Assembly: GCA_018062285.1 (NCBI GenBank)
Contig: JAGOSO010000002.1
Coordinates: forward strand, 3,164-67,163
Direction of reading: 5' to 3'
Length of the DNA stretch: 64,000 nucleotides
Origin: Minisyncoccota bacterium
GTDB lineage: Bacteria > Patescibacteriota > Minisyncoccia > 2-02-FULL-40-12 > GWA2-44-9
This document shows positions 10,548 to 50,292 of the stretch, piece by piece (within the stretch, counting starts at the first letter, position 1; every line of letters begins with the position of its first letter). The position numbers and the translations under genes were made by a program. The notes under the pieces were generated by a model. The model made no database searches, had not been told where the DNA came from, and worked only from the letters and a program-made list of their open reading frames with translations.

Positions 10548-10886
10548 CTACATCATCCAGGCCATGAAGAAATCCATGTACGAAAGATTGTTCACCAGCA
10601 CAGTCAAGCCGTCACACTTGTCGGCAAATGAATTGCCCATGAAGTCGTTCATCAGCCAGGCAGCGTACCGCTCCTCGCGGTCAGCCCCGTAGTAGTGACA
10701 GTTGTGCCCGTCGATCACGACGTCCGTTCTTCCGATCGCCCAAATAAGGCGGATGAGCGTCCCGTCCTGATCAACGAAAGCAATCTCTCCATCCGTGGAC
10801 GCCGCCTGCAGGGAGGAGGTGGCGATTGGGGCGGCCATGACCAGGGCCACCATCAGAGCAAGAACCAACTTTCTCAAACGTTTCAT
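10548..10886 (-). CDS. Small secreted Cys-containing protein, tandem paralog 1 (signal peptide; C-terminus ...FFMAWMM)
   Basis: MKRLRKLVLALMVALVMAAPIATSSLQAAS signal peptide; GC-rich; GAGGG SD; the tool's longer ORF to 11027 runs into the upstream promoter, so the start is placed at MKRLRK. Confidence 0.6.
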   Translation of the reverse strand: MKRLRKLVLALMVALVMAAPIATSSLQAASTDGEIAFVDQDGTLIRLIWAIGRTDVVIDGHNCHYYGADREERYAAWLMNDFMGNSFADKCDGLTVLVNNLSYMDFFMAWMM

Positions 10887-10941
10887 TTGCTTTCCCTCAC
10901 GAAAATACTGGGCCCAACCGGTAGGACTCAGTAGTTTCAAT

Positions 10942-10970
10942 ATTATAGCCGATAGACCCGAAATGGTCAA
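10942..10970 (-). promoter_or_regulatory. Sigma70 consensus-like promoter TTGACC-17-TATAAT for paralog 1
   Basis: Minus-strand TTGACCatttcgggtctatcggcTATAAT about 55 nt upstream of the ATG. Confidence 0.6.
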
Positions 10971-11046
10971 TTGTGGATTATTTTTAAGTATTAAAAAAGG
11001 CTGGTGATCGTGCCTTAGCACGATCACCAGCCGTGACGCCGAGCTG

Positions 11047-11370
11047 CTACATCATCCACCACCAGAAGTTCATGGCCTCGAGGTTGTCGATCATCAGGTT
11101 GATGTCATCGCACTTGTCGGCGAAGTCATTGCCGCGCAAGTCGTTCACCAGCCAGGCAGCATACCGCCAGGCTCTTTCCGGGCCGTAGTACTGGCACTGG
11201 ACGCCGTCAATGATCACAGCCTTTGACTGCTTGTAGATGACAACCAGACGCCCCTGATCATCGACGAAAGAGACCTCGTCGCTGGAGGCGCGAACGGTCG
11301 TGGTGGTGACTGTGCCGGCCATGAAAAGGGCCACCATCAGAGCAAGAACCAGCTTTCTCAGACGTTTCAT
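11047..11370 (-). CDS. Small secreted Cys-containing protein, tandem paralog 2 (C-terminus ...NFWWWMM)
   Basis: About 45% identical to paralog 1 with the same signal peptide MKRLRKLVLALMVALFMAG and conserved DGxxCxYYG...YAAWLxND...FADKCD core. Confidence 0.6.
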   Translation of the reverse strand: MKRLRKLVLALMVALFMAGTVTTTTVRASSDEVSFVDDQGRLVVIYKQSKAVIIDGVQCQYYGPERAWRYAAWLVNDLRGNDFADKCDDINLMIDNLEAMNFWWWMM

Positions 11371-13077: not shown

Positions 13078-14019
13078 TTAGATCTCTTCCTTAAATTTAA
13101 TGTATGCCTGTTGAATTATGTATAAACCATACTCAAGTTCTTTTTCGTTTGAAATTTCAATTGACGAAATATGTTGATTGTAGTGTTTCATACTGTTTTC
13201 GTTGTAAAAAACTTTATGTTCTGGATCTTTAAAATCTTTTGGCTGAGCTCGAGTAAAATCGATTTTGAGCTTACTTCCAAGCACGTGACAGTATAAGACA
13301 TTTTTTAAGTTGCCTGGCAGCTGGAAAGAAATATAAGATTTTGTCGGATGCGGCATCAGACTGGAGTCAAGGGCAGAAAGCCTGTCTTTCATCTGTTCAT
13401 ATAACTTTTTACCCATTCCCGACGGCCGACTCTTTAAGTAATCTTCTTCAGAGTAAGTTCTTACTTGTCTGGAAACCTTCCGCACTTCACTATCTGTAAT
13501 ACCCAAACTCTCTATGGACGCTTTGGCTCCAGTCTTCTTGATCTGAGAATATTCAATGAGATCTCCTTCGTATCGTGTGACTTCCCACAATTCAATAGGT
13601 AGGTCTCTAAAATTAATTGCTTCAAGTTGGTAGGGAGTAAAAGATCTAGTCAAAAAAATGACCTTCATTTGAGACCAGTCGAAGTCAGACTTCCCCCTCT
13701 TCTCTTGAAATTTTTTATTAAATTCTAAAACAAATTCCGCTTGGTTGTTAAGTATTAGCGATAGATAGGCAAAGCCTTGGTCAATCACACTAAAACTTCT
13801 TTCTCTTTTATATTCAATGACCACGAAAGTATTCAGACTGGGATCGTATGCCAAAGTATCTATGCGCAGACCATTGTGTTGGAATTCAGTCGCAATAAAT
13901 TCTAAGCCAAATATTTCTTTAATATTTTTTTCGGTCAACTCCTGCAAGTCCTTCTCTAGCCTAAAGGGCGCTTCTCTTATTAAACCGATTTTTTCTTGTT
14001 GTTTTTTAAATAAAGACAT
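13078..14019 (-). CDS. PD-(D/E)xK nuclease-fold protein (NucS/DUF91-like N-terminal domain + uncharacterised C-terminal domain)
   Basis: GLRIDTLAYDPSLNTFVVIEYKRER reproduces the D...(D/E)xK NucS/DUF91 core (IDxLAxDxxGxxVVIExKR); immediately downstream of hsdR. Confidence 0.5.
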   Translation of the reverse strand: MSLFKKQQEKIGLIREAPFRLEKDLQELTEKNIKEIFGLEFIATEFQHNGLRIDTLAYDPSLNTFVVIEYKRERSFSVIDQGFAYLSLILNNQAEFVLEFNKKFQEKRGKSDFDWSQMKVIFLTRSFTPYQLEAINFRDLPIELWEVTRYEGDLIEYSQIKKTGAKASIESLGITDSEVRKVSRQVRTYSEEDYLKSRPSGMGKKLYEQMKDRLSALDSSLMPHPTKSYISFQLPGNLKNVLYCHVLGSKLKIDFTRAQPKDFKDPEHKVFYNENSMKHYNQHISSIEISNEKELEYGLYIIQQAYIKFKEEI

Positions 14020-14021
14020 AA

Positions 14022-16355
14022 TTATTTATATAACAGTTTTTGGAAGCCAAAGAAAATTGATCGAATTTCAATAACTTCACCGAGCTCTTGTTCTGCATTA
14101 GCAATGGCATGATATTTCAAATTCAAGAGTATTGGTAATTTATCTTCGCCCAATTCTTCAACGCCTTTTTCCTGATACTTAGCCAAAGCAAATTCAATGA
14201 AATCTCTCTGCTTTTCATTTAAGCCGTCGAGGATGTTGTACTTATTGTTTTGAATTCTCTCAACTCGACTTATTGGTTGTAAAGCAAAAGCGATGTAGCC
14301 AAGTACATCGAATAAGTCACTGTTCTCCGCATTAACTATTTTCTGTATAGATTCAAGTTGTTCCTTGCCGTAACCCATCTCACCTAGTTTTTCAAGCAAA
14401 GCTTTTCTAGTTTGGGGGTTTGACCATATCTCTCTTAGTTGCTTTTCGTCTTTAAATAGATCTGGCAACGCTCCGTAAAGACTATTCAAAAATTCTTCGG
14501 TTGATATTGGCTTACCATCCGCACTCCAAAACGAGGTTGAGATCATGTGCTGTATTTCTCTCTCTTTGCCATCTCGAAGCTTTATTTTTAGTTTCTCTGC
14601 TGGGGGTGGTGGAAGTACTTCACAAACACAAGGTCTCTGACCGCATACTTCACAAATTCGAGGTTCAGTTGGTGGCTTAGTCTCATCTTCGGTTGTTTGA
14701 TCAATTGGTTCTCCGTCCCACTCGGGATCTAGGAAGTGGTGATACGCGTCCACGAAATCTATAATTGTGAAATATTCTTTCCCATCAAACAATCTAGTAC
14801 CACGACCAATAATCTGCTTAAACTCAATCATCGAATTTACAGGCCTCATTAATACAATATTTCTTACATTGCGAGCATCGACACCAGTAGAAAGTTTTTG
14901 TGAAGTGGTAAGGATAGTTGGGATAGACTTTTCGTTATCTTGGAACTGACGAAGATATTCTTCGCCTAAAAATCCGTCATTGGCGGTAACTCGCACACAA
15001 TAATTTGGATCTGAACTTTTCTTGTGCTTGTTTATAAAATCACGAACAAGAAGCGCGTGACCTTGTGTAGCGCAAAATACGATGGTTTTTTCATTCTGGT
15101 TTATTTCATTCAGAAATACTTTTACTCGATTTTCTTCTCGTTCACGAATGTGGATGTTCCCTCGAGCAAAATCATCTTCTTTGTAAATCTTTCCTTCCTC
15201 AACCTCTCCCTCAACCACAGTGTCATCCGAAGTATAAATATATTCATCCAGCGTCGTTTTAATACGCTTTACTTTGAATGGTGTAAGGAATCCATCGTTA
15301 ATTCCTTCTTTGAGTGAATAGATATATACCGGCTCGCCAAAATATTTATAGGTATCTACGTTATCAATTCTTTTTGGCGTTGCAGTAAGACCAAGCTGTA
15401 CCGCAGAAGAAAAATATTCCAGAATACCTCTCCAGTTTGATTCGTCGTTTGCCCCGCCCCTGTGACACTCGTCAATGATTATTAAATCAAAGTAATCTTT
15501 TGGATATTCACCAAAGTAAGGAGTTTCATCTGGGCCACTCATGAAAGTTTGGAAGATGGCAAAGAAGATACTTCCATTCATTGGAACGCCACCCTTCTTG
15601 CGAATATCATTGGGCGTAATGCGAACCAGTGCATCCTCAGGAAAAGCGCTGAAAGCATTAAACGCTTGATCGGCTAAGATATTTCTATCTGCCAAGAAAA
15701 GAATTCGAGGCTGTCTCTTACCATCTCGACTGATATTCCATCTGCTCTGGAATAGTTTCCATGCGATTTGAAAAGCTATGAATGTTTTGCCCGTACCAGT
15801 TGCTAATGTAAGCAATACTCGAGGCTTCTCTTCTGCGACAGCATCCATCACTCGGTTAACTGCTATTTCTTGATAGTAACGAGCTGATTTACTACCATTA
15901 ACATCTTCGAATGCAACATCTGAAAACTTGTTCTTCCACTCATTCTGTTCAGAATAAATTTTATTAAATAATTCCTCTGGGGTTGGGAAAGTAATAACCG
16001 GCCCTTCGATACCATTCTTCATGTCTATCTCATGGATTTCGTGTCCATTGGTTGAATAAGAAAAAGCCACCTGAAGCTTACCGGCGTACGTTTTTGCTTG
16101 TTGTACACCTTCAGTAGGTGCTAGGGACTCTTTCTTTGCCTCAATTACGGCAAGTTTTCTGTTTTTATATACCAAGACATAATCAGCAATTTCCGGCTTT
16201 TGAGGTACGCCGCCCATTTCAATCTTTCCTGGAGATATACGAAATTCTCGATGGACTTTGGACCCTTCAATAACACCCCAGCCAGATTCCTTGAGTTTTG
16301 GATCTATATATTCAGCTCTAGTTTCGGATTCATTCATGTACTTGACATTATACAA
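14022..16355 (-). CDS. hsdR: Type I restriction enzyme R subunit HsdR
   Basis: N-terminal nuclease region, SF2 helicase motifs LTLATGTGKTFIAFQ (motif I) and IIIDECHRG (DEAH); 777 aa. Confidence 0.85.
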   Translation of the reverse strand: MYNVKYMNESETRAEYIDPKLKESGWGVIEGSKVHREFRISPGKIEMGGVPQKPEIADYVLVYKNRKLAVIEAKKESLAPTEGVQQAKTYAGKLQVAFSYSTNGHEIHEIDMKNGIEGPVITFPTPEELFNKIYSEQNEWKNKFSDVAFEDVNGSKSARYYQEIAVNRVMDAVAEEKPRVLLTLATGTGKTFIAFQIAWKLFQSRWNISRDGKRQPRILFLADRNILADQAFNAFSAFPEDALVRITPNDIRKKGGVPMNGSIFFAIFQTFMSGPDETPYFGEYPKDYFDLIIIDECHRGGANDESNWRGILEYFSSAVQLGLTATPKRIDNVDTYKYFGEPVYIYSLKEGINDGFLTPFKVKRIKTTLDEYIYTSDDTVVEGEVEEGKIYKEDDFARGNIHIREREENRVKVFLNEINQNEKTIVFCATQGHALLVRDFINKHKKSSDPNYCVRVTANDGFLGEEYLRQFQDNEKSIPTILTTSQKLSTGVDARNVRNIVLMRPVNSMIEFKQIIGRGTRLFDGKEYFTIIDFVDAYHHFLDPEWDGEPIDQTTEDETKPPTEPRICEVCGQRPCVCEVLPPPPAEKLKIKLRDGKEREIQHMISTSFWSADGKPISTEEFLNSLYGALPDLFKDEKQLREIWSNPQTRKALLEKLGEMGYGKEQLESIQKIVNAENSDLFDVLGYIAFALQPISRVERIQNNKYNILDGLNEKQRDFIEFALAKYQEKGVEELGEDKLPILLNLKYHAIANAEQELGEVIEIRSIFFGFQKLLYK

Positions 16356-16357
16356 TA

Positions 16358-17500
16358 TTATAGTCCATTTGAAAAGGCTTTGTCGAGTATGGATTTCTTT
16401 AATTCATCAATACTCTCAAGCTTTTGTTTGTAGAGGGACTCTAATTCCTGAGTCTTTTCAGAAAGCTGATCGAGTTTTTTAACAATTATTTTTTGTTGGA
16501 CTAGTGGAGAAATTGGAATTTCAATACTTTCAATTTGAGTCTTATTTATAGAATTAAATACCGCACCGGAATTTCCAATCAACTGATCTTCGAACATTTT
16601 AAAAAAATAAAAAAGAAAATCCCTATCAATTTCATCACCAACCCTAATAGCAGCTAAACCACGCCCAATACAAATTTTTTCAGTAGCAAAGTTTGTTGGT
16701 CCCACAGGTGCCCTGACTGACATTAAAATGTCTCCTTTTTCAGCTTCCTTTGTAACTTGAGTAGTCCAAACTGTTGGTTTTTTTAAAAAAATATCTCCAA
16801 AATCTTTTTTACCTTGATAGAAAGGTAACCCTTGACCTAATTTATTATAAAATTTACCTTCAGGTGATTGTCCTGCGATTACTTTACAAGTTTGACCTAT
16901 TTTTTTAACTTCCCAACTCTTACCTAGATTACAAAAAACATTATTTAAATAGGACTCAAAAAGCTCTTTTGAATTTTGCAAATTATTTTCCGTATTTTCT
17001 TTTGCTATTTCTAGATTTTTAAAAGTCTCATCGAGAATTTTTACAATTCTTTTTTGTTCTTGTAGAGATTCTGGAAAAGAAATCTGTATTTGCTTAAGGT
17101 TGTCATTATAAAGTCGAGAAATTGTAGCACCTTTAGTAGAATTCCAATCACAAACCTCGTAAAAGTAGTATAGATAGTCGTTTAATACTTGTTTTTCATC
17201 ATTATCAATCCATACAATATTTGAATCTTGAAAATATGCTGGCTTACCATCATACCTGACCCGTCTTCCAATTGTTCCAGATGCAGAAATAAGGATATCC
17301 CCTTTTTTGGGGAACGAAAATTTATTATGAAACTCGTTATATATTTCTTCAGAAATAAAGGCATCTGGTTCCTTACCAAAAGTTCCAATTTTATAAAATG
17401 GAATATCTCCAATTTTTTTCGTCTGGTCTTTAAATATCCTTTTACACATTGATATCTTACCAATATCTCCGAGTTTTTTTGTTTGCCAGTTAGTTTTCAT
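16358..17500 (-). CDS. hsdS: Type I restriction-modification specificity subunit HsdS (two target-recognition domains)
   Basis: Duplicated TRD architecture with conserved central and C-terminal coiled-coil spacer (LESLYKQKLESIDELKKSIL). Confidence 0.8.
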   Translation of the reverse strand: MKTNWQTKKLGDIGKISMCKRIFKDQTKKIGDIPFYKIGTFGKEPDAFISEEIYNEFHNKFSFPKKGDILISASGTIGRRVRYDGKPAYFQDSNIVWIDNDEKQVLNDYLYYFYEVCDWNSTKGATISRLYNDNLKQIQISFPESLQEQKRIVKILDETFKNLEIAKENTENNLQNSKELFESYLNNVFCNLGKSWEVKKIGQTCKVIAGQSPEGKFYNKLGQGLPFYQGKKDFGDIFLKKPTVWTTQVTKEAEKGDILMSVRAPVGPTNFATEKICIGRGLAAIRVGDEIDRDFLFYFFKMFEDQLIGNSGAVFNSINKTQIESIEIPISPLVQQKIIVKKLDQLSEKTQELESLYKQKLESIDELKKSILDKAFSNGL

Positions 17501-17502
17501 AA

Positions 17503-18924
17503 TTACAGAAGTTCTAACATGTACTCAATTCCTTTCTTTAGTTCTGATTCATTAATTTTAGGTTTAGTTGAATTGTAATGATTGATACCATTTCTGATTT
17601 CAGTTATAAATGTTATCTCATCAGGATGACCTTTCCAGGCTCTGTCTTTTTTAATTTTTTTACTCTGTAAATTTGTAAACAAATAATTCTGATCAAATAG
17701 TTTCACAGAAGTTCTATTACTATCACCTGCATCTTCATCTATATATCTTTCATGTAATATTCCATATAGTTGATTAAAATAATCACTTGATGGTATTCCA
17801 AAAACTTCATAGTTAACTGAAGCATAGGTTGATATATTTTTATCAAACTTCTCTATACTTGTTTTATTTGTCTTATCGCTCTTAATCACTTTATAATTTC
17901 TAGATAAATCATTTTTATCTATCATATAGTTTGAGTGGGTAGCAAAAAGACAAATATTATTTTCACCTTGAGATATCTTAACTAGCTCAGACAAGAAATA
18001 TTCTTGGGCCTGCGGATGCAGATGTGTTTCTGGTTCATCCAATAATATCAATGAATCAGAAAGCTCTTTAGTCTCTCTTTGAGATGAAACATTCAACAAA
18101 AAAGATACGAACTGTTTAAATCCATCGCTCCTTTGAACTGTTGTTCTAGGTCTTCCATTTGGATCATTAACATGAAAATTAATTATGTCTCCTGATATAT
18201 CAAAAGTTATGGTAATTGGATGGTTTGGCCAGACTTGTTTTATTAACTCTGTCACCTTAACACCCAGATCAGTCCGTAGAACTTGTCTCTCTGTAGAGTC
18301 CGTAGATATTTCCTGAATTTTCGATTGAATTTTATCTTTTGTATCTAATCCTAGTAATGAAAAACAATTCTTTAAGGGGATAGAAACATTGTCAGGATCA
18401 GCAGAAAAAGCACTCAGACTTATTTCCTTATTTATCAAATATTTATCTTCGGATTTCCAGAAAATAGTGTAATGAGTTTTTTTATAAATATGATCCTTTA
18501 ACAAACTTTCAATATTATCTTTTTGATCAGATTTTATATAAGCGCAAGCAAGAGATATGTTTTTTGTAAGAGATGGGTACTCAAAATTTACATACAGGGT
18601 CACTGATTTTAATTCTTCGTTTGAAATCCCTGATTCTGGAAAGCTTTCTAGAATTATTTTTATAGATTCAGAGATTTCTTCATCTGATTGTTCGTAAACA
18701 AAAACAACTGTAATCGGATTAGGTTTATTATGAAAATCTCCTATTTCAGGTTTTATATTTGTATGATCATCTAACAACGCCAACGCCTTTAAAAAACTAC
18801 TCTTGCCAGCCTCATTAATACCAATCAATCCGTATGTAAAACTACCATCATCCTGTGGTTGTATTTCAAACGGCGCATCTTCAATGCTTCTATAATTTTT
18901 AATTCTAACTGATTTTAATTTCAT
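17503..18924 (-). CDS. ABC-type ATPase fused to a C-terminal HEPN-like domain (PrrC/RloC-like anticodon-nuclease architecture) embedded in the type I RM operon
   Basis: Walker A GLIGINEAGKSSFLKAL, Walker B/D-loop LILLDEPETHLHPQAQ, H-loop LFATHS; C-terminal EIRNGINHY fits the HEPN R-x4-H motif; position between hsdM and hsdS mirrors the E. coli prrC locus. Confidence 0.55.
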   Translation of the reverse strand: MKLKSVRIKNYRSIEDAPFEIQPQDDGSFTYGLIGINEAGKSSFLKALALLDDHTNIKPEIGDFHNKPNPITVVFVYEQSDEEISESIKIILESFPESGISNEELKSVTLYVNFEYPSLTKNISLACAYIKSDQKDNIESLLKDHIYKKTHYTIFWKSEDKYLINKEISLSAFSADPDNVSIPLKNCFSLLGLDTKDKIQSKIQEISTDSTERQVLRTDLGVKVTELIKQVWPNHPITITFDISGDIINFHVNDPNGRPRTTVQRSDGFKQFVSFLLNVSSQRETKELSDSLILLDEPETHLHPQAQEYFLSELVKISQGENNICLFATHSNYMIDKNDLSRNYKVIKSDKTNKTSIEKFDKNISTYASVNYEVFGIPSSDYFNQLYGILHERYIDEDAGDSNRTSVKLFDQNYLFTNLQSKKIKKDRAWKGHPDEITFITEIRNGINHYNSTKPKINESELKKGIEYMLELL

Positions 18925-18928
18925 AGTT

Positions 18929-20446
18929 TTAAATTAATTCACTTAATTCGCTCATGATTTTTATTACTTCTTTATCAAGTGAAGCAATTTCTTTAATAAT
19001 TTCTTTTGGAGACCTCACTGCGACCTTATCTAGCTTATTGGGATTTTTCACTGAAAGATCGTGTGTCTTCTGATCCACTTCAGATACATTTATAGTCCAA
19101 GAATTTTTTGAATCTACTCTTGTCTTGTAAAGTTCCACAAACTCAGACAAATCTTGCTCGCTGAGAGGATTAGTTTTACCAAGATTTCTATCAAGATTAA
19201 GGTGGTAATACCATATTTTCTTAGTTGGACTACCTTTTTTGAAAAATAGGATTACAGTTTTAACACCTGCTTGAAATACACCTCCCGGCAAATCAAGGAC
19301 TGTATGCAAGTCGCAACTATTTAAAAGTTCTTTTCGTAAATTGGCAGCCTTGTCTTCCGATAAAAAGGTGTTTTTTATAACAATGCCTGCGCGACCACCA
19401 GCTCTAAGCTTTTTAATAAAGTGTTGTAGGAACAGATAGGCTGTCTCTCCGCTTTTTATCGGAAAGTTTTGCTGTATTTCTTTTCGCTCACCACCACCAA
19501 ATGGTGGATTAGCTAATATCACATCAAATCTATCCTTCTCTTGTATGTCTGTAATGTTTTCTGACAGCGTGTTGGTGTGAATAATATTTGGCGCATCAAT
19601 ACCATGAAGAATCATGTTCATGACACCAATGATGTATGGAAGAGTTATTTTTTCTTTACCATAAAAAGTTTTTTCTTGTAGAACCTGCCAATCCTTTGAA
19701 GAAAGTTTCTCTCTTTTCTCCGTCATGTGATCATAAGCCTCTATAAGAAAGCCAGCTGATCCGCAGGCGCCATCGTATACAGTTTCCCCAATTTTAGGAT
19801 CTACTAATTCAACGATCGCACGAATAAGAGGGCGTGGAGTGTAATATTGCCCACCATCACGTCCGGCATTACCCATTTTTGCTATCTTACTCTCATAGAG
19901 GTGAGAAAGTTCATGCTTTTCTTCATTCGATTGAAAATGTAAGACATTTACAATATTAAGAATTTCTCTAAGGGCATAGCCACTTTTAATTTTATTCTTA
20001 AGCTCACTAAATATTTCACCGATTTTATACTCAATGGTGTTTGGATTCTCTGCACTAAATTTCCTGAGGTATGGAAAAAGTTTTTGATCAACAAAAGAAT
20101 TTAAATCTGCGCCAGTGAGTGCTTTGTTATAATCGATCTTCTCTTCTTTGTTCATGGGGCATGCCCAATTGCTCCATCTATAATCTGGTTCAAGTATGAA
20201 ATCATATTTTTTGCCAGCAAGTCTGGCTGCTTTTCCTTTCTCAATTTCTAAATCATCCAGATATTTTAAAAATATAATCCAGGAAGTTTGCTCTATATAA
20301 TCCATCGCGCCGCCAGCGTTATCGTTCTTAAGTATATTGTCTATATTTTTGAATGCCTGTTCGAACATAATACCCAAATCATGCTCTTTTTTAAGGTTTT
20401 TATCAATCCTTCGACTTTGCTCAGGACAAGTGGCCCAACGGCTCAA
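18929..20446 (-). CDS. hsdM: Type I RM N6-adenine DNA methyltransferase HsdM
   Basis: HsdM N-terminal domain (WIIFLKYLDD), SAM motif I DGACGSAGFL and catalytic NPPFGG; the annotated start is a TTG inside a palindrome, and an internal ATG (MFEQAF) is an alternative. Confidence 0.85.
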   Translation of the reverse strand: MSRWATCPEQSRRIDKNLKKEHDLGIMFEQAFKNIDNILKNDNAGGAMDYIEQTSWIIFLKYLDDLEIEKGKAARLAGKKYDFILEPDYRWSNWACPMNKEEKIDYNKALTGADLNSFVDQKLFPYLRKFSAENPNTIEYKIGEIFSELKNKIKSGYALREILNIVNVLHFQSNEEKHELSHLYESKIAKMGNAGRDGGQYYTPRPLIRAIVELVDPKIGETVYDGACGSAGFLIEAYDHMTEKREKLSSKDWQVLQEKTFYGKEKITLPYIIGVMNMILHGIDAPNIIHTNTLSENITDIQEKDRFDVILANPPFGGGERKEIQQNFPIKSGETAYLFLQHFIKKLRAGGRAGIVIKNTFLSEDKAANLRKELLNSCDLHTVLDLPGGVFQAGVKTVILFFKKGSPTKKIWYYHLNLDRNLGKTNPLSEQDLSEFVELYKTRVDSKNSWTINVSEVDQKTHDLSVKNPNKLDKVAVRSPKEIIKEIASLDKEVIKIMSELSELI

Positions 20447-20531
20447 CCGGTTGAGCCGTTGCCCAAACCAAGCTTAGCCTTTCTCTTTTTATCGCTTGAA
20501 AGACACTCTGTAATACCCAAAAGGAGCGAGG

Positions 20532-20625
20532 GCCAAGTCAAAACTGACTGTCGCAGGCCGGGCAGGCCGGAGTTCTAAGCGGAAAAGTCAGCAGACTTTT
20601 AACGCGGGTCAGTTTTGGCTTGGGC
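20532..20625. repeat. Structured repeat element copy R1 (outer stem + conserved core gcggaaaagtcagcagacttttaacgcgggtc)
   Basis: Outer stem gccaagtcaaaactgac/gtcagttttggcttgg encloses the conserved core; the second copy is at 25965-26040. Confidence 0.6.
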
Positions 20626-20634
20626 TGAGCGATG

Positions 20635-21015
20635 TCACTCATGTTTGAGCCGTTTGCGAAGCTCTCGGTAATCCGGAAACTGTTGAGCGACTAAATCCCA
20701 GAAGTTCTGGGAGTGGTTGAATTCTTTGAGGTGGCAGAGTTCGTGGACGATAATGTAATCGGCAAGACGTGGTTCCATTAGAGCCAAGCGATAACTAAAA
20801 TTAAGATTGCCACGACGGGAACAACTCCCCCAACGAGTCTTCTGATTACGGATAGCAACTTTATTGTATTTAAAATTATATAATTGATTAAAATATTCTA
20901 ATCTCTCATGGACTAGTTTGCGGGCCGATTCTTTGTGAGCCAAATATTCCTTGCGTGGTGGCCTCGGCCTTGAAACTCTAACCCTCCGCCACACTATTTT
21001 AAATCTGGTAAACAT
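20635..21015 (-). CDS. DUF45/YgjP-like (WLM/SprT-like) predicted zinc metallohydrolase
   Basis: HEXXH zinc motif IIVHELCHLKEFNH near the C-terminus; this family is frequently linked to type I RM loci. Confidence 0.65.
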   Translation of the reverse strand: MFTRFKIVWRRVRVSRPRPPRKEYLAHKESARKLVHERLEYFNQLYNFKYNKVAIRNQKTRWGSCSRRGNLNFSYRLALMEPRLADYIIVHELCHLKEFNHSQNFWDLVAQQFPDYRELRKRLKHE

Positions 21016-21085: not shown

Positions 21086-21571
21086 CTAGCTGGCCGTTTC
21101 GGCTGACTCGGGCTGGTACTCGACCATGAGTCGCCGGCCGGGTCTGTCGTAGATGACATGGTTAAGTTCTACGACCTTCGGATTCTGCCCCAGATCGAAG
21201 CGGATGGAAATATCCGCCTCATCCCGCTTCACTTTGGCTTCCGTCATCATCTGACGGACGAGGGCCAACATCGGGCTGGAGATGCCGTCGTTGCGCCAGC
21301 AGGAATCGTGGTTGGACATGACCTCCCACGAGTCCAGATGATCGAAGCGAGCGTTAACCGCATCAGTGATGTTCCACCCGACCTTCGTGTAGTTCTGGGG
21401 CCGGTGGAACAGAAGATGGGCGATCTTCTGGTGGGAGCGGGCGGAGCTGCCCCGGCGAGAGACGCGAACGTCGAACGCCATGACCAACACCTTCTTCTCG
21501 CCACTCCCCCGCGGGAGCATTGCCTCAACGATTGTCGAGGCAACTTCCTCGAAATCCATGTTCAAAGCCAT
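21086..21571 (-). CDS. Hypothetical protein (GC-rich island gene 1 of 8)
   Basis: 161-aa ORF with AAGGAGG 8 nt upstream of the ATG; the overlapping opposite-strand ORFs are rejected as GC-driven artefacts. Confidence 0.5.
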   Translation of the reverse strand: MALNMDFEEVASTIVEAMLPRGSGEKKVLVMAFDVRVSRRGSSARSHQKIAHLLFHRPQNYTKVGWNITDAVNARFDHLDSWEVMSNHDSCWRNDGISSPMLALVRQMMTEAKVKRDEADISIRFDLGQNPKVVELNHVIYDRPGRRLMVEYQPESAETAS

Positions 21572-21700
21572 CTGCTGTGCCTCCTTAGGCGTTAAAAGAA
21601 CGTATATAAATTATACCATAGTTTATATTAAAAAGCAAGTGCTAGTTTTTGAGTAAAAAAGAGCCCCCTCGGCACGCAATGCGTACCGAAGGGGTAATGA

Positions 21701-22204
21701 TTAGAGATCGTGGATGACGATCGTGGGAGCGGGAGCATTGTCCCACTTCTGCTTGATTCGCTTGAGCTCTTCTTCAACGGCCAACCCGACGCCCTCATCG
21801 ACAGACCAGAGAACATCGTTGTTGATGTCGAACCAGAGATTGAAACGATTCTCGTACGGACTGGGGGTCTTGAGACCGAGCTTGAATTCAAGGGCCTCAC
21901 GGAAGAGAGGAGCTGACTTGAAACGCATGGTCTCGTCCACAGCGACACGCTGGATGAGTTCCTGATAGCCGGTGAAATTGAATCCCCGGCCAGCAATGAC
22001 TTCCACCTTGATCACGGCTTCGCCAAAAATGATTGTCGTCTCAATGCGCGTGATACCTTTGGCAAAGATCCGTTTGAGCGACGACGGTCGAGAGCCCAAT
22101 TCAAACTCGGCGGCTCCCATGTTGTCGTACTCAATCTTTCCCCTTTCCTTGCTGGGGTCAAAGGCGCAACGCTGAATATAACGCGGATAAGCTAACTCGG
22201 GCAT
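21701..22204 (-). CDS. Hypothetical protein, paralog family A copy 1
   Basis: MPELAYPRYIQRCAF...GRGFNF...ETMRFKSAPLF...EFKLGLKTP...NLWFDINNDVLW; AAGGAGA SD; about 50% identical to 22614-23075. Confidence 0.55.
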   Translation of the reverse strand: MPELAYPRYIQRCAFDPSKERGKIEYDNMGAAEFELGSRPSSLKRIFAKGITRIETTIIFGEAVIKVEVIAGRGFNFTGYQELIQRVAVDETMRFKSAPLFREALEFKLGLKTPSPYENRFNLWFDINNDVLWSVDEGVGLAVEEELKRIKQKWDNAPAPTIVIHDL

Positions 22205-22333
22205 GTTGCCTGTCTCCTTGTGGGAAAGAACTCCCGTATTATATACCAAAATTTACAGCAAAAGGCAATCAAAAATTTTGTACAAAAAATGCCCGCTCGC
22301 AAGGACCAGTGGGGTCGATGCGAGACGGGCGTG

Positions 22334-22576
22334 TTAGTGATTGCCAAAAAATAACATGGCAAGCACGACGAGGACGATGATCCCCACGGCAAGTGGGTAC
22401 CGGTTGGCGGTGCGATTAGCCGCACGGCCACTGGCCCGACCAACGTGTCGGACACCGTTCCCTGCCACTCGGCCGACTCCACGAGCGAATCGGTTGGCAG
22501 AATCGGGGCCTCCGAAAATCATCCGAAAGCCATAAATCACGATGGCGAGAACGAGCAGTGAACCAAGCAAGGGCAT
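22334..22576 (-). CDS. Small two-TM membrane protein
   Basis: MPLLGSLLVLAIVIYGF...YPLAVGIIVLVVLAMLFF; GGAGGT SD. Confidence 0.5.
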   Translation of the reverse strand: MPLLGSLLVLAIVIYGFRMIFGGPDSANRFARGVGRVAGNGVRHVGRASGRAANRTANRYPLAVGIIVLVVLAMLFFGNH

Positions 22577-22613
22577 AAGTACCTCCGGCGGGTTAGATTG
22601 TTAAGTTTCTGAA

Positions 22614-23075
22614 TCAGCTGATACCAGCTGTGGGGCGGGCCTGCCATCTCTCTCTGATGAGATTGAGCGAGGCAGACAGTCCAACGGCTTCGATGGTCCA
22701 GAGAACATCATTCTCGATGTCGAACCAAACGTTGACTCGAGGCTGATAAGCGGTGGGCCTCTTCAGCCCGAGCTTGAATTCAATCTCGTCTTTGAATCGA
22801 GGTGCGGCGGCGAACCGCATGGTGCTGTCGGTGGCAATTCGCTCGATGTGCCCCTGATAGCTGACGAGATCGAATCCGCGCGAACCAACCAGCTCGATAG
22901 GCACAACACTGCCGGTGTTGAAACGGATCCCCGTCTGGAATTGAACAATTCCTTTTTCGAAAATCCGCCTCAACGAATTCTGGGTGCCCCACTGGAAATC
23001 GGAGATGCCCATATCGTCGAACCTGAGTTTCCCATCTTTCAAAGTGCAACGCTGAATCAAACGCGGTCTCTTCAT
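22614..23075 (-). CDS. Hypothetical protein, paralog family A copy 2
   Basis: MKRPRLIQRCTL...GSRGFDL...STMRFAAAPRF...EFKLGLKRP...NVWFDIENDVLW aligns with copy 1. Confidence 0.55.
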   Translation of the reverse strand: MKRPRLIQRCTLKDGKLRFDDMGISDFQWGTQNSLRRIFEKGIVQFQTGIRFNTGSVVPIELVGSRGFDLVSYQGHIERIATDSTMRFAAAPRFKDEIEFKLGLKRPTAYQPRVNVWFDIENDVLWTIEAVGLSASLNLIRERWQARPTAGIS

Positions 23076-23106
23076 TACCAGTATCCTTATCTGGTCCTAG
23101 AAGATT

Positions 23107-23607
23107 CTAGAACGATGTTTTTTGTCGAACCTCTTCGAGCATTCGGTCAAATTCTTCTTCCGTCATCTGTTTCAGGTGTGCTGACAAGTCTTCTGTCCCC
23201 TCTGGCCATTCAAAGATGTTTCCCTCTCGACCAGCCAGTGAATCAAATTGGTTCTTCGTGAGGAAATTGCCGACGGAGAAAGCGTCCAGATTGAACACTG
23301 CTCCACGGGATATTAACCCAACTTCGATACCAAGAGACTCATTGATATACATCAGGCGAGGGTGAACATAAACCTTGTGCCGTGGAAGTTGGAGCCAGAT
23401 TTTCTTGAGGAGGTCGAGATCGGTCACGATGACCGGACAACCAATTTCCCAAAGAACATCATCCACCCCCAAGACTACTGGCCACACCTCATCTTCTGGC
23501 AAATCCGCAATGAGCATCATGAAGGAATACCCGATACGGTATCCAGACTGATCCCCCTTTAGTACTGCCCTGAGATTTCTTGGCTTGTCTACCCTTTCTG
23601 AATACAT
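23107..23607 (-). CDS. Hypothetical protein, paralog family B copy 1
   Basis: VDKPRNLRAVLKGDQSGYRIGYSFMMLIADLPED...; AAGGAG SD; shares its N-terminal pattern with 23725-24183. Confidence 0.5.
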   Translation of the reverse strand: MYSERVDKPRNLRAVLKGDQSGYRIGYSFMMLIADLPEDEVWPVVLGVDDVLWEIGCPVIVTDLDLLKKIWLQLPRHKVYVHPRLMYINESLGIEVGLISRGAVFNLDAFSVGNFLTKNQFDSLAGREGNIFEWPEGTEDLSAHLKQMTEEEFDRMLEEVRQKTSF

Positions 23608-23724
23608 CGAATAACTCCTTATCTATATTATAGCACGTTTTAAATAAAAATCAATAGAAATAAAAAAGCCGCCCACCAGAGGTGTCCGATGGGACAGCTC
23701 TTGAATGGACGGCGTATGGGTTGC

Positions 23725-24183
23725 TTAGGCCTGATACTTCTTGCTGGCCTCGGCAATCATCTTGAGAAAATTTATTTCAGACATCGGAGTGAGAAGAACC
23801 AGCGTCGGATGCCACATGAAAGGGCGACCCTGTTGGGAGATAAGGTGCGTGAAAAGTTCGGGTGTGAGGATTTCTTCAACTTGGCAGAATTCTGGCGAGT
23901 TGGAGACTGGGGCTTGGAGTCCCAGAAGTAGATTGACATAAGCCAATCTCTCAACAACTTTGCTTGGAGCTGGGGGCATCAGTTGCCACACTCGCTGGAT
24001 CACCTCAAATTCTGTGGCCCACACGACTGATCTTGTTCGCATGTAGACCGAGCGAAAATCTTGGTCCCCGCAATGATCGAACATCAAAGAGAAAACTTTC
24101 ATCAATCGGTAACCGCTTTGGACACCATCGATGATTTCTTGCAGATTCTTGGGTCGAGAAGACCCTCTGTCAACGACTTCCAT
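23725..24183 (-). CDS. Hypothetical protein, paralog family B copy 2
   Basis: VDRGSSRPKNLQEIIDGVQSGYRLMKVFSLMFDHCGD... same RxxPxNLxxxxxGxQSGYR...F..M..D core as copy 1. Confidence 0.5.
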   Translation of the reverse strand: MEVVDRGSSRPKNLQEIIDGVQSGYRLMKVFSLMFDHCGDQDFRSVYMRTRSVVWATEFEVIQRVWQLMPPAPSKVVERLAYVNLLLGLQAPVSNSPEFCQVEEILTPELFTHLISQQGRPFMWHPTLVLLTPMSEINFLKMIAEASKKYQA

Positions 24184-24198
24184 TATTCCTGCCCCCCT

Positions 24199-24729
24199 CT
24201 AGTTGATATGGGTCAACAAGCCGATGGCCTGAGACCAACCATAGATCTGTTCGGTCTTACCGAAGAAATGCTCGAACTCGGCCACCTCATGAATTTTGGG
24301 GTTAAACAAGAAGAGACGCATCCCCATACCAATGAGTGACCCCAACGCCTCGAGATGATCATCAATGTAGTGAGTCAACTCAAGGTCCCGACACAGAGCA
24401 GCCTTCTCGGCCCGCTCTCGACAGTAGTGAACACGGGCCGACGAATTCGGAATCCCTGTTTTCGCATACAGCTGGTGGTAATCCAGCCAGTGGTGGGTTT
24501 TGGTTCGGATGTCACCGTCGCGCTCTCGTGAGATCAGATGAACACGTCCGGCGAACGGCCCAGAGTTCAGATGACCCAAGACACCGAATACGCCGAAGGT
24601 CGGGAGGGCCTGAAGATAGTTCGGTCCTTTGAACAAGGCAGAGCCTTCGCCCCTAGCGTTGTCGATGACGACCCCACTGATATCCACGCCCAACACAGCC
24701 CTTCTTCCTGACAAATCTGCACCTGACAT
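24199..24729 (-). CDS. Putative HAD-superfamily 5'(3')-deoxyribonucleotidase-like protein
   Basis: N-terminal RRAVLGVDISGVVIDN resembles HAD motif I of the NT5C family (DMDGVLxDF); later K...W...H...IDDH region; AAGGAG SD. Confidence 0.35.
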   Translation of the reverse strand: MSGADLSGRRAVLGVDISGVVIDNARGEGSALFKGPNYLQALPTFGVFGVLGHLNSGPFAGRVHLISRERDGDIRTKTHHWLDYHQLYAKTGIPNSSARVHYCRERAEKAALCRDLELTHYIDDHLEALGSLIGMGMRLFLFNPKIHEVAEFEHFFGKTEQIYGWSQAIGLLTHIN

Positions 24730-49652: not shown

Positions 49653-49811
49653 AGTATATACGTTTGGATGTGACCTATTGTTTCTCGCCTTCTAGCTTCT
49701 AGAATACCATGTTTTGCTTGATTTTTCAACACAAATACTCTCTGGCCCGGTTCCTGTTATCTCTAAAATACAAAATGCCCGCTCTTTCGATGGGGCATTT
49801 TGTATTTAATG

Positions 49812-49884
49812 GGGGGATAACGGGAATCGAACCCGTGACCGCGCTGCCACAGAGCGCTGTGATAACCGCTTCACCATATCCCCC
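49812..49884 (-). tRNA. tRNA-His (GTG) with genomically encoded G-1
   Basis: Hand-folded cloverleaf: acceptor ggggata/tatcccc with extra 5' G, D-stem gtga/tcac, anticodon loop cTGTGgc, T-arm acggg-ttcgatt-cccgt, discriminator C. Confidence 0.8.
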
Positions 49885-50006
49885 AATATTAACTACGGAC
49901 TTAATACGTCCTTCTATTATATCGTATTTTATTGCATAAATCCAGGGGTAAAGTTATCCATGCTTTACGTTTTGGCTTTTTTAACGTAGAATTCAATAGC
50001 TACGAT

Positions 50007-50081
50007 GCTCTCGTAGCTTAATGGATAAAGCAGGACTCTTCTAAGGTCTTGATGGGGGTTCGATTCCCTCCGGGAGCACCA
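50007..50081 (+). tRNA. tRNA-Arg (TCT), CCA encoded
   Basis: Acceptor gctctcg/cgggagc, D-arm gctt-aatggata-aagc, anticodon loop cttcTaa, T-loop ttcgatt, 3' acca. Confidence 0.8.
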
Positions 50082-50101
50082 GAGAGGCAATAGAGCAATA
50101 T

Positions 50102-50172
50102 CGGGCCGTTGTGTAACGGTAGCACGCATGATTTGGGATCATGTAGTCCGGGTTCAAATCCCGGCGGCCCGA
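50102..50172 (+). tRNA. tRNA-Pro (TGG)
   Basis: Acceptor cgggccg/cggcccg, anticodon stem catga/tcatg with loop ttTGGga, T-arm ccggg-ttcaaat-cccgg. Confidence 0.8.
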
Positions 50173-50180
50173 CAAGTTAG

Positions 50181-50214
50181 ATCTGAACGGCTCAAGTGGT
50201 TGAGCCGTTCAGAT
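50181..50214. repeat. Palindromic element copy 3 (atctGAACGGCTCAA-gtgg-TTGAGCCGTTCagat) between tRNA-Pro and tRNA-Gly
   Basis: 15-bp perfect inverted repeat; core shared with copies at 12179-12202 and 20437-20460. Confidence 0.7.
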
Positions 50215-50218
50215 TAAG

Positions 50219-50292
50219 GCGGGATTCGTATATCGGTAATACATGAGTTTTCCAAACTCAAGAGACGGGTTCGACTCCCGTATCCCGCTCCA
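50219..50292 (+). tRNA. tRNA-Gly (TCC), CCA encoded
   Basis: Acceptor gcgggat/atcccgc, anticodon stem tgagt/actca with loop ttTCCaa, T-arm acggg-ttcgact-cccgt, followed by terminator aaaaaacagg...ctgtttttt. Confidence 0.8.

Follow-up and report, generated by a model that had tools for sequence, protein, structure and literature searches.

A 64-kb stretch of DNA from a Minisyncoccota bacterium (GenBank assembly GCA_018062285.1, contig JAGOSO010000002.1; hereafter the window) carries a complete EcoAI-family type I restriction-modification (RM) operon that includes an additional gene between hsdM and hsdS. The product of this gene, which we call X, is an ABC ATPase that ends in a small domain with an Arg and a His separated by four residues (Rx4H). 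We propose that the operon acquired a single-gene module of the abortive type, in which an OLD-class ATPase acts as a switch for a predicted HEPN-like ribonuclease (RNase) domain. We give this explanation an even chance of being correct. The evidence for it comes from the RM genes that surround X, from the genomic context of its relatives and from the conservation of the Rx4H motif.

A type I RM operon with an embedded ATPase gene

Six co-directional genes occupy positions 13078-21015 on the minus strand of the window. In the open reading frame (ORF) listing, the five genes from hsdM onward (hsdM, X, hsdS, hsdR and a candidate-defense gene termed PDC-S18) are separated by gaps of 4, 2, 2 and 2 nucleotides. 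A sequence-only reading of this DNA had recognized the minus-strand order hsdM, ATPase gene, hsdS, hsdR with short gaps between them, and this order is confirmed by the first three of these gaps and by family assignments from Pfam, PADLOC and NCBIfam. The features of the RM genes and of X are as follows.

18929-20446, minus strand: hsdM, type I methyltransferase subunit (longest ORF, 505 amino acids)
17503-18924, minus strand: X, embedded ABC ATPase with C-terminal Rx4H domain (473 amino acids)
17845-18924, minus strand: ABC ATPase head of X, approximately residues 1-360, with helical and beta inserts between Walker A and the signature
18799-18822, minus strand: Walker A of X, GINEAGKS, residues 35-42 (from the translation)
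18028-18045, minus strand: Walker B/D-loop of X, LLDEPE, residues 294-299 (from the translation)
17506-17832, minus strand: C-terminal domain of X, approximately residues 365-473 (about 105 amino acids), a discrete unit in the AlphaFold2 (AF2) model
17578-17595, minus strand: candidate catalytic site of X, R444-N-G-I-N-H449, within EIRNGINHY (from the translation)
16358-17500, minus strand: hsdS, specificity subunit with two target-recognition domains (380 amino acids)
14022-16355, minus strand: hsdR, restriction/translocase subunit of the EcoAI/FtnUII family (777 amino acids)

The HsdM protein matches the Pfam families N6_Mtase (E = 1.3e-62) and HsdM_N as well as the PADLOC model MTase_I (1e-153), and HsdS matches Methylase_S of Pfam in two stretches (4.6e-50) and Specificity_I of PADLOC (5.6e-81). 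The HsdR protein scores 814.7 bits against the NCBIfam model NF046051 (EcoAI/FtnUII), for which the cut-off is 550, with residues 7-777 aligned, and its Pfam matches are ResIII, EcoEI_R_C and HSDR_N. An HsdR above the equivalog cut-off, an HsdM and an HsdS with two target-recognition domains in one operon constitute a complete EcoAI-family type I RM system, which we take to be type IB. Because the family model alignments begin at residue 27 of HsdM and residue 7 of HsdR, the probable start codons of these genes are the ATGs at 20368 and 16337, respectively, each inside the longest ORF.

The G+C content of the cassette (0.30 for X, 0.31 for hsdS, 0.36 for hsdM and 0.39 for hsdR) is lower than the window mean (0.42) and lower than that of its right flank, the adjacent region at 21-25 kb (0.47-0.53), which suggests that the RM cassette was acquired horizontally. 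A scan of the operon for promoters and terminators gave signals no better than the shuffled expectation.

The X protein is 100% identical to a protein from a Candidatus Pacebacteria metagenome-assembled genome and has more than 737 homologues. It matches the Pfam families AAA_15 (5.8e-20, 72.7 bits) and AAA_21 (1.5e-17, 65.1 bits), both above the gathering scores, and its AF2 model has a predicted local distance difference test (pLDDT) score of 90.6. The claim of the sequence-only reading that the protein carries complete ABC ATPase motifs agrees with an alignment of 78 homologues. In this alignment, N37, E38, K41 and S42 of Walker A are invariant and G35 and G40 are nearly so. The core residues of the ABC signature (Q264-RSDGF) and the H-loop residue H330 are invariant or nearly invariant, and D296, E297, P298 and E299 of the Walker B/D-loop are invariant.

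The top PDB neighbors of the ATPase head in a Foldseek search are PtuA (from Septu and retron Eco7/Ec78), GajA, OLD and SMC heads, with E values of about 1e-15 to 1e-12. The best PADLOC and NCBIfam matches of X are generic (Old, AriA, GajA, PtuA, NsnB and the retron Eco8 effector) and score far under the level of family members. For example, the top PADLOC model, Old, yields 89.9 bits, compared to 313 bits for the PDC-S18 protein on its own model. A dedicated model for X is absent from Pfam, NCBIfam and PADLOC v2.0.0. The ATPase of X belongs to the OLD-type AAA_15/AAA_21 class that includes OLD, PtuA, GajA and AriA.

The genomic context of X relatives was sampled at 24 loci, each with a full-length homologue and flanks of 2-8 kb on each side (at least 2 kb). 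At nine of these, hsdM is located directly upstream and hsdS directly downstream of the homologue. Some type I gene is present within the flanks at 13 loci, and none at the other 11. Linkage to RM genes is seen for 10 of 12 relatives whose identity to X is 43% or higher, and for 3 of 12 below this level. The two closest relatives (86-87% identity) keep the hsdM-X-hsdS trio with 4-nucleotide overlaps, and in one of them hsdR lies upstream. The RM systems that host X homologues carry HsdR proteins of two unrelated families, the 777-amino acid EcoAI type and a type of about 1,060 amino acids. Relatives free of RM genes come from Methylotenera and several Bacteroidota, among others, and include stand-alone copies such as that of Methylotenera, which sits among housekeeping genes. 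No partner gene is conserved beside X, either in RM-embedded or in stand-alone loci. X is a self-contained module, and one clade strongly prefers the hsdM/hsdS junction. Because distant relatives stand alone, silencing by an RM system is not required, and no RM system is needed in cis.

These contexts also bear on a strict PrrC-type latency of the kind put forward in the sequence-only reading, in which HsdM, HsdS and HsdR would mask X until an anti-restriction factor frees it to cut a tRNA anticodon loop. The position of X between hsdM and hsdS, with gaps of 2-4 nucleotides here and overlaps in relatives, implies co-translation with the methylase core. This arrangement, the frequent RM linkage among the closer relatives, and the precedents of PrrC and PARIS for sensing RM inhibition are all consistent with such a scheme. 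However, the 11 full-length relatives whose flanks hold no type I gene do not conform to it, and the embedding of X in two unrelated type I families makes a specific, co-evolved interface less likely. We consider strict latency of this kind unlikely.

The C-terminal Rx4H domain of X

The model of the C-terminal domain, which has a pLDDT of 86, is helical with one beta-hairpin. The predicted order is a helix at residues 380-397, a helix at 407-420, the beta-hairpin at 428-437, a short helix at 439-447 that ends in R444-N-G-I-N-H449, a loop, and a final helix at 459-472. A search of 1.84 billion representatives with a profile of the domain recovered 915 clusters (50% identity). Most carriers are 420-540 amino acids long with the domain at the C terminus, and it is nearly always attached to an ABC ATPase, in some cases one with a clearly different N terminus (P0200, P0234 and P0214).

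In 48 diverse members of the domain family (mean identity 35%), no column is invariant other than R444, H449 and L462. Most cluster representatives (at least 118 of 148) follow the pattern R-[NH]-x-[IVMT]-x-H, usually in the form R-[NH]-x-I-[HDNS]-H. In the single sequence of X, an Rx4-6H motif is no better than chance. Shuffled versions of X contain R-x4-6-H a mean of 0.98 times, compared to twice in X itself, and 26% of shuffles contain at least two copies; the pattern R-[NDH]-x3-H occurs in 5% of shuffles. The Rx4H motif is meaningful because it is invariant across the family, and not on the basis of X alone.

The domain was also found in two other settings. On metagenome contig SRR6261386_30533 (locus L086, 2329-2694), a stand-alone Rx4H domain of 121 amino acids (P0236) sits between PBECR4 and AbiH genes with no ATPase upstream; this is at least one case of the domain by itself in defense-type surroundings. 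On metagenome contig SRR31227997_25507 (locus L087, 2130-7611), a different ABC ATPase (P0200, 536 amino acids) carries the same C-terminal Rx4H domain and adjoins an HpaII-type type II RM pair, a RhuM-Fic gene and Vsr. Most matches among plasmid homologues of the P0200 ATPase leave out the C-terminal domain and extend over only some three quarters of the protein. This pattern suggests that the ends of these ATPases are swapped in a modular fashion.

The likeliest reading of the domain is a HEPN-like RNase, a prediction that we rate as somewhat more probable than not. HEPN domains are all-alpha units of about 100-120 amino acids composed of two alpha-hairpins, with an insert between helices 2 and 3. 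The domain of X is of similar size, is predicted to be mostly helical, and has its beta-hairpin at the expected insert site; its motif helix, however, is short. The HEPN signature is Rx4-6H with a polar residue (N, D or H) after the Arg (PMC3710099). In the family pattern R-[NH]-x-I-x-H, this residue is N or H. Moreover, a helix that ends in Rx4H, a short loop with an acidic residue, and a last helix form a layout that is common to X, DUF3644 (FRDQAVHLLMPE) and RnlA (ERHSLFHME).

The 48 domain members were also scanned one by one against PADLOC and Pfam. The matches, all below threshold, were concentrated on models of proteins that contain HEPN domains. Four of the eight PADLOC families that were matched are of this kind (Cas13a, Cas13d, CARF2-CARF and RTasHEPN), and one of the Cas13a matches spans the motif region (model positions 50-119 of 139). 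One member matched DUF3644 of Pfam, likewise below threshold (E = 0.017).

Several observations weigh against a HEPN assignment. The family-profile search that the sequence-only reading had suggested for the C-terminal domain returned no match for the window domain in Pfam, PADLOC, PDB sequences (E <= 10) or PHROGs (E <= 0.1), and the K/N/E-rich composition of these domains could contribute to the Cas13 matches of the other members. A Foldseek search of the domain against PDB and BFVD found no structural neighbor, with template modeling scores (TM-scores) of at most 0.38. The predicted topology, with helices, a beta-hairpin, and the motif in a short penultimate helix, is unlike the textbook four-helix HEPN fold. 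In addition, a subgroup of close homologues with the sequence RNCIHY has its His at +4 and not at +5.

HEPN domains also carry a second conserved acidic residue upstream, typically in the context Ex3[KR]. The Glu in the DYHNELY segment of the family (about 95% conserved) is not in this context, and the window protein has Gln at this position. The clade to which it belongs has DYFNQLY where about 95% of the family has DYHNELY, such that both H383 and E385 are replaced. Should this Glu serve as the second catalytic residue of HEPN, the window copy could be altered or inactive.

Alignment of the domain by hhalign with DUF3644 and with RnlA also gave probabilities below 1%, although Rx4H was aligned on Rx4H in these comparisons. 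The DUF3644 alignment comprised E. coli 042 EC042_RS15105 together with its homologues, and the RnlA search gave only three homologues. These negative results weigh little because a control comparison of DUF3644 with RnlA, both accepted HEPN families, was equally insignificant. The HEPN R-x4-H motif claimed by the sequence-only reading stands as far as the segment EIRNGINHY and the family-wide invariance of R444 and H449 are concerned, and lacks a significant HEPN profile or fold match.

A different interpretation is that the C-terminal domain is non-catalytic and serves as an adaptor or regulatory tail, as in PtuA, which holds PtuB, or in NsnB with its DUF3696. X would then be an accessory ATPase that acts via the RM complex, PDC-S18 or a host factor. 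Related OLD-type ABC ATPases do bind separate effectors via helical C-terminal tails, and the PADLOC alignments of X with PtuA and PDC-M01A extend to residues 430 and 399, respectively. A tail of this type would also account for a domain that matches no nuclease fold or family and for the loss of the conserved H383 and E385 in the window clade. However, there is no conserved partner gene near X, PDC-S18 is present in the window and at none of the related loci that were fetched, and Foldseek with the domain model missed the C-terminal domain of PtuA. It would also be unexpected for an adaptor that Arg, His and one Leu alone stay invariant across relatives with 35% identity and differing ATPase N termini. 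On balance, we view the adaptor interpretation as rather improbable.

For the HEPN-like RNase that we prefer, a mechanism can be modeled on PrrC and RloC together with PtuA, GajA and AriA. The ABC ATPase would be the sensor and switch of X, and the invariant R-N-x-I-x-H most likely would form a HEPN-like, metal-independent RNase site. At rest, the C-terminal domains would be held apart or occluded by the ATPase. An infection cue might then alter the nucleotide state or the dimer geometry, where candidate cues include a lost or inhibited M/S complex that is co-expressed with X, an anti-restriction protein, and phage DNA or protein. Two Rx4H domains would pair to create a composite active site, and cleavage of cellular or phage RNA (tRNA or mRNA) would cause growth arrest as a second layer behind restriction. 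Translational coupling to HsdM and HsdS would secure co-expression and co-transfer, and might also allow X to sense an inhibited methylase core. We infer the RNase activity, the dimer-dependent activation, the trigger, the RNA target and any dependence on the RM proteins by analogy with these systems, and tRNA-Lys as a target would be pure analogy.

More tentatively, with a likelihood that we place somewhat short of even, the C-terminal domain might represent a large family of HEPN-like RNases with repeated fusions to ABC ATPases of the OLD type. Within it, a single clade would then be a translationally coupled guardian of type I RM methylase cores, and would represent an independent, convergent version of the PrrC strategy even in the reduced genomes of the candidate phyla radiation (CPR). 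The ATPase-fused domain family comprises at least 915 clusters at the identity level given above, and has no model in the copies of Pfam, NCBIfam and PADLOC that were searched.

Comparison with known systems

The ATPases closest to X in sequence and fold are those of Septu and retron systems (PtuA-PtuB), Gabija (GajA), PARIS (AriA-AriB) and Menshen (NsnB). In these OLD-type defense systems, as proposed for X, an ATPase gates a nuclease, and several either lead to tRNA cleavage or respond to anti-restriction proteins. They act through a Toprim or HNH effector, present as a separate protein or as a domain, whereas X has neither of these and carries a small Rx4H domain in cis. Septu and PARIS have partner nuclease genes (HNH for PtuB and DUF4435/Toprim for AriB), whereas the neighbors of X are hsdM and hsdS.

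An identity of X with OLD or GajA was rejected because X has no Toprim domain; no Toprim match was obtained, and the matches to PADLOC Old and to OLD in PDB end at about residue 366, in the ATPase head. A role for X as an OLD-like nuclease that targets DNA together with HsdR is also very unlikely. Homologues bear names such as 'ATP-dependent nuclease' and 'predicted ATP-dependent endonuclease of OLD family', and Old is the best PADLOC model, but the names are generic transfers and the likeness is limited to the head (residues 273-366 for Old and 292-356 for OLD 6p74). Furthermore, neither Toprim nor any other known DNase domain was found in X.

PrrC (from the E. coli prr locus, EcoprrI) and RloC resemble X in that a single polypeptide joins an ABC ATPase at the N terminus to a small Arg/His domain at the C terminus. 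A gene embedded in a type I RM operon and a presumed second-line abortive role are further common features. The sequence-only reading had gone further, to a PrrC-like anticodon nuclease in a gene order that reproduces the classical prr locus. In that locus, which encodes a type IC RM system, prrC is flanked by hsdS and hsdR, whereas the gene for X is flanked by hsdM and hsdS in a system of the EcoAI family, and so the order appears not to be reproduced. X also has many stand-alone relatives, which is another difference from PrrC and RloC.

The protein sequence likewise departs from that of PrrC. The ATPase of X is of the AAA_15/AAA_21, OLD-type class, and not of the PrrC/RloC clade, whereas AAA_13 (PF13166), which we take to be the Pfam family of PrrC and RloC ATPases, gave no match to X at E <= 0.01. 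The 25 best PADLOC families for X do not include PrrC. The model of X contains neither the Rad50-like coiled coil nor the zinc hook of RloC. PrrC and RloC have the triad Arg-x3-Glu-x36-52-His (R320, E324 and H356 in PrrC; PMC2610378), whereas X has the invariant R-x4-H. The triad is not conserved among X relatives, and the sole R-x3-E in X (R393-E397) falls on variable alignment positions.

Judged by its sequence, X resembles PrrC in outline and is not a member of the PrrC/RloC family. What survives of the proposed PrrC-type architecture is an ABC ATPase with an Rx4H domain that is tightly coupled to a complete type I RM system, and not a relationship to PrrC. That X is nevertheless a true, diverged PrrC/RloC anticodon nuclease, as its similar plan and genomic home might suggest, is contradicted by the missing AAA_13 match, triad and RloC elements and is almost certainly incorrect.

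Anantharaman et al. 2013 had predicted ABC-HEPN fusions within RM operons (the APECO1_4465 and ERFG_01251 families). As described, these families also combine an ABC ATPase with a C-terminal HEPN domain and often occur in RM operons or by RhuM/Fic genes. The C-terminal domain of X is covered by no Pfam model. The P0200 protein noted above, with its X-type domain, has neighbors of the same kind. A search for a named E. coli or plasmid counterpart of X yielded only generic 'AAA family ATPase' and 'ATP-binding protein' matches, mostly without the C-terminal domain, and nothing usable was found in the literature on the Campylobacter rlo/mlo genes.

Embedded defense genes were catalogued in 2024 (Payne et al. 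2024, 'guilt by embedding'), and TgvAB is known from a Vibrio type I RM system. X resembles these examples as a putative accessory defense gene nested inside a type I RM operon. Unlike PDC-S18, which stems from the 2024 catalogue, X has no PADLOC v2.0.0 model of its own.

Flanking genes and implications

Two further members of the unit, beyond those described in the sequence-only reading, lie at its ends.

13078-14019, minus strand: PDC-S18 candidate-defense gene (313 amino acids), which starts 2 nucleotides past the hsdR stop
20635-21015, minus strand: short YgjP-like/DUF45 metallopeptidase gene with an HELCH motif (126 amino acids), first gene of the block, 5' of hsdM

The PDC-S18 protein matches the PADLOC model of that name over its full length (4.7e-94, 313 bits), and a Pfam scan of it gave no match. 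Residues 54-117 have a weak match to the PADLOC 'Effector endonuclease' model, and the N-terminal region 'DTLAYD…VVIEYK' resembles a PD-(D/E)xK nuclease motif. PDC-S18 was considered as a required partner of X and ruled out because it is absent from all related loci that were fetched.

The YgjP-like gene matches the corresponding Pfam family (1.3e-37) only over its C-terminal half (profile positions 108-206 of 207). Full-length YgjP-like genes are located 3' of hsdR in three related loci (L002, L006 and L033). Just upstream of the window gene, at 21073-21043, a 14-bp GC-rich hairpin followed by a run of T nucleotides probably ends the preceding transcription unit.

Adjoining the cassette, six small minus-strand ORFs (150-180 amino acids) at 21086-24729 have no Pfam match. 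Two of these (21701-22249 and 22614-23075) are paralogues (44% identity, E = 6e-49), and two others (23107-23607 and 23725-24183) resemble a second related pair when compared by eye. On the other side, the minus-strand ORFs at 10548-11027 and 11047-11370 share a signal-peptide-like start (MKRLRKLVLALMVAL) and similar C-terminal halves, and look like tandem copies of a small secreted protein. The window also contains a tRNA cluster at 49811-50292, with His(gtg) on the minus strand followed by Arg(tct), Pro(tgg) and Gly(tcc) on the plus strand.

Because ABC-HEPN fusions in RM loci, PrrC, and embedded defenses are already established, the value of the present finding is incremental and not conceptual. 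If the Rx4H domain is an RNase, X would represent a second, non-homologous lineage of ATPase-gated RNases that is wired into type I RM operons. It would add a testable candidate system to defense catalogues and offer a natural point of comparison for the control of HEPN-type effectors by ABC ATPases. It would also indicate that the genomes of CPR bacteria (Patescibacteria) can carry layered defense.

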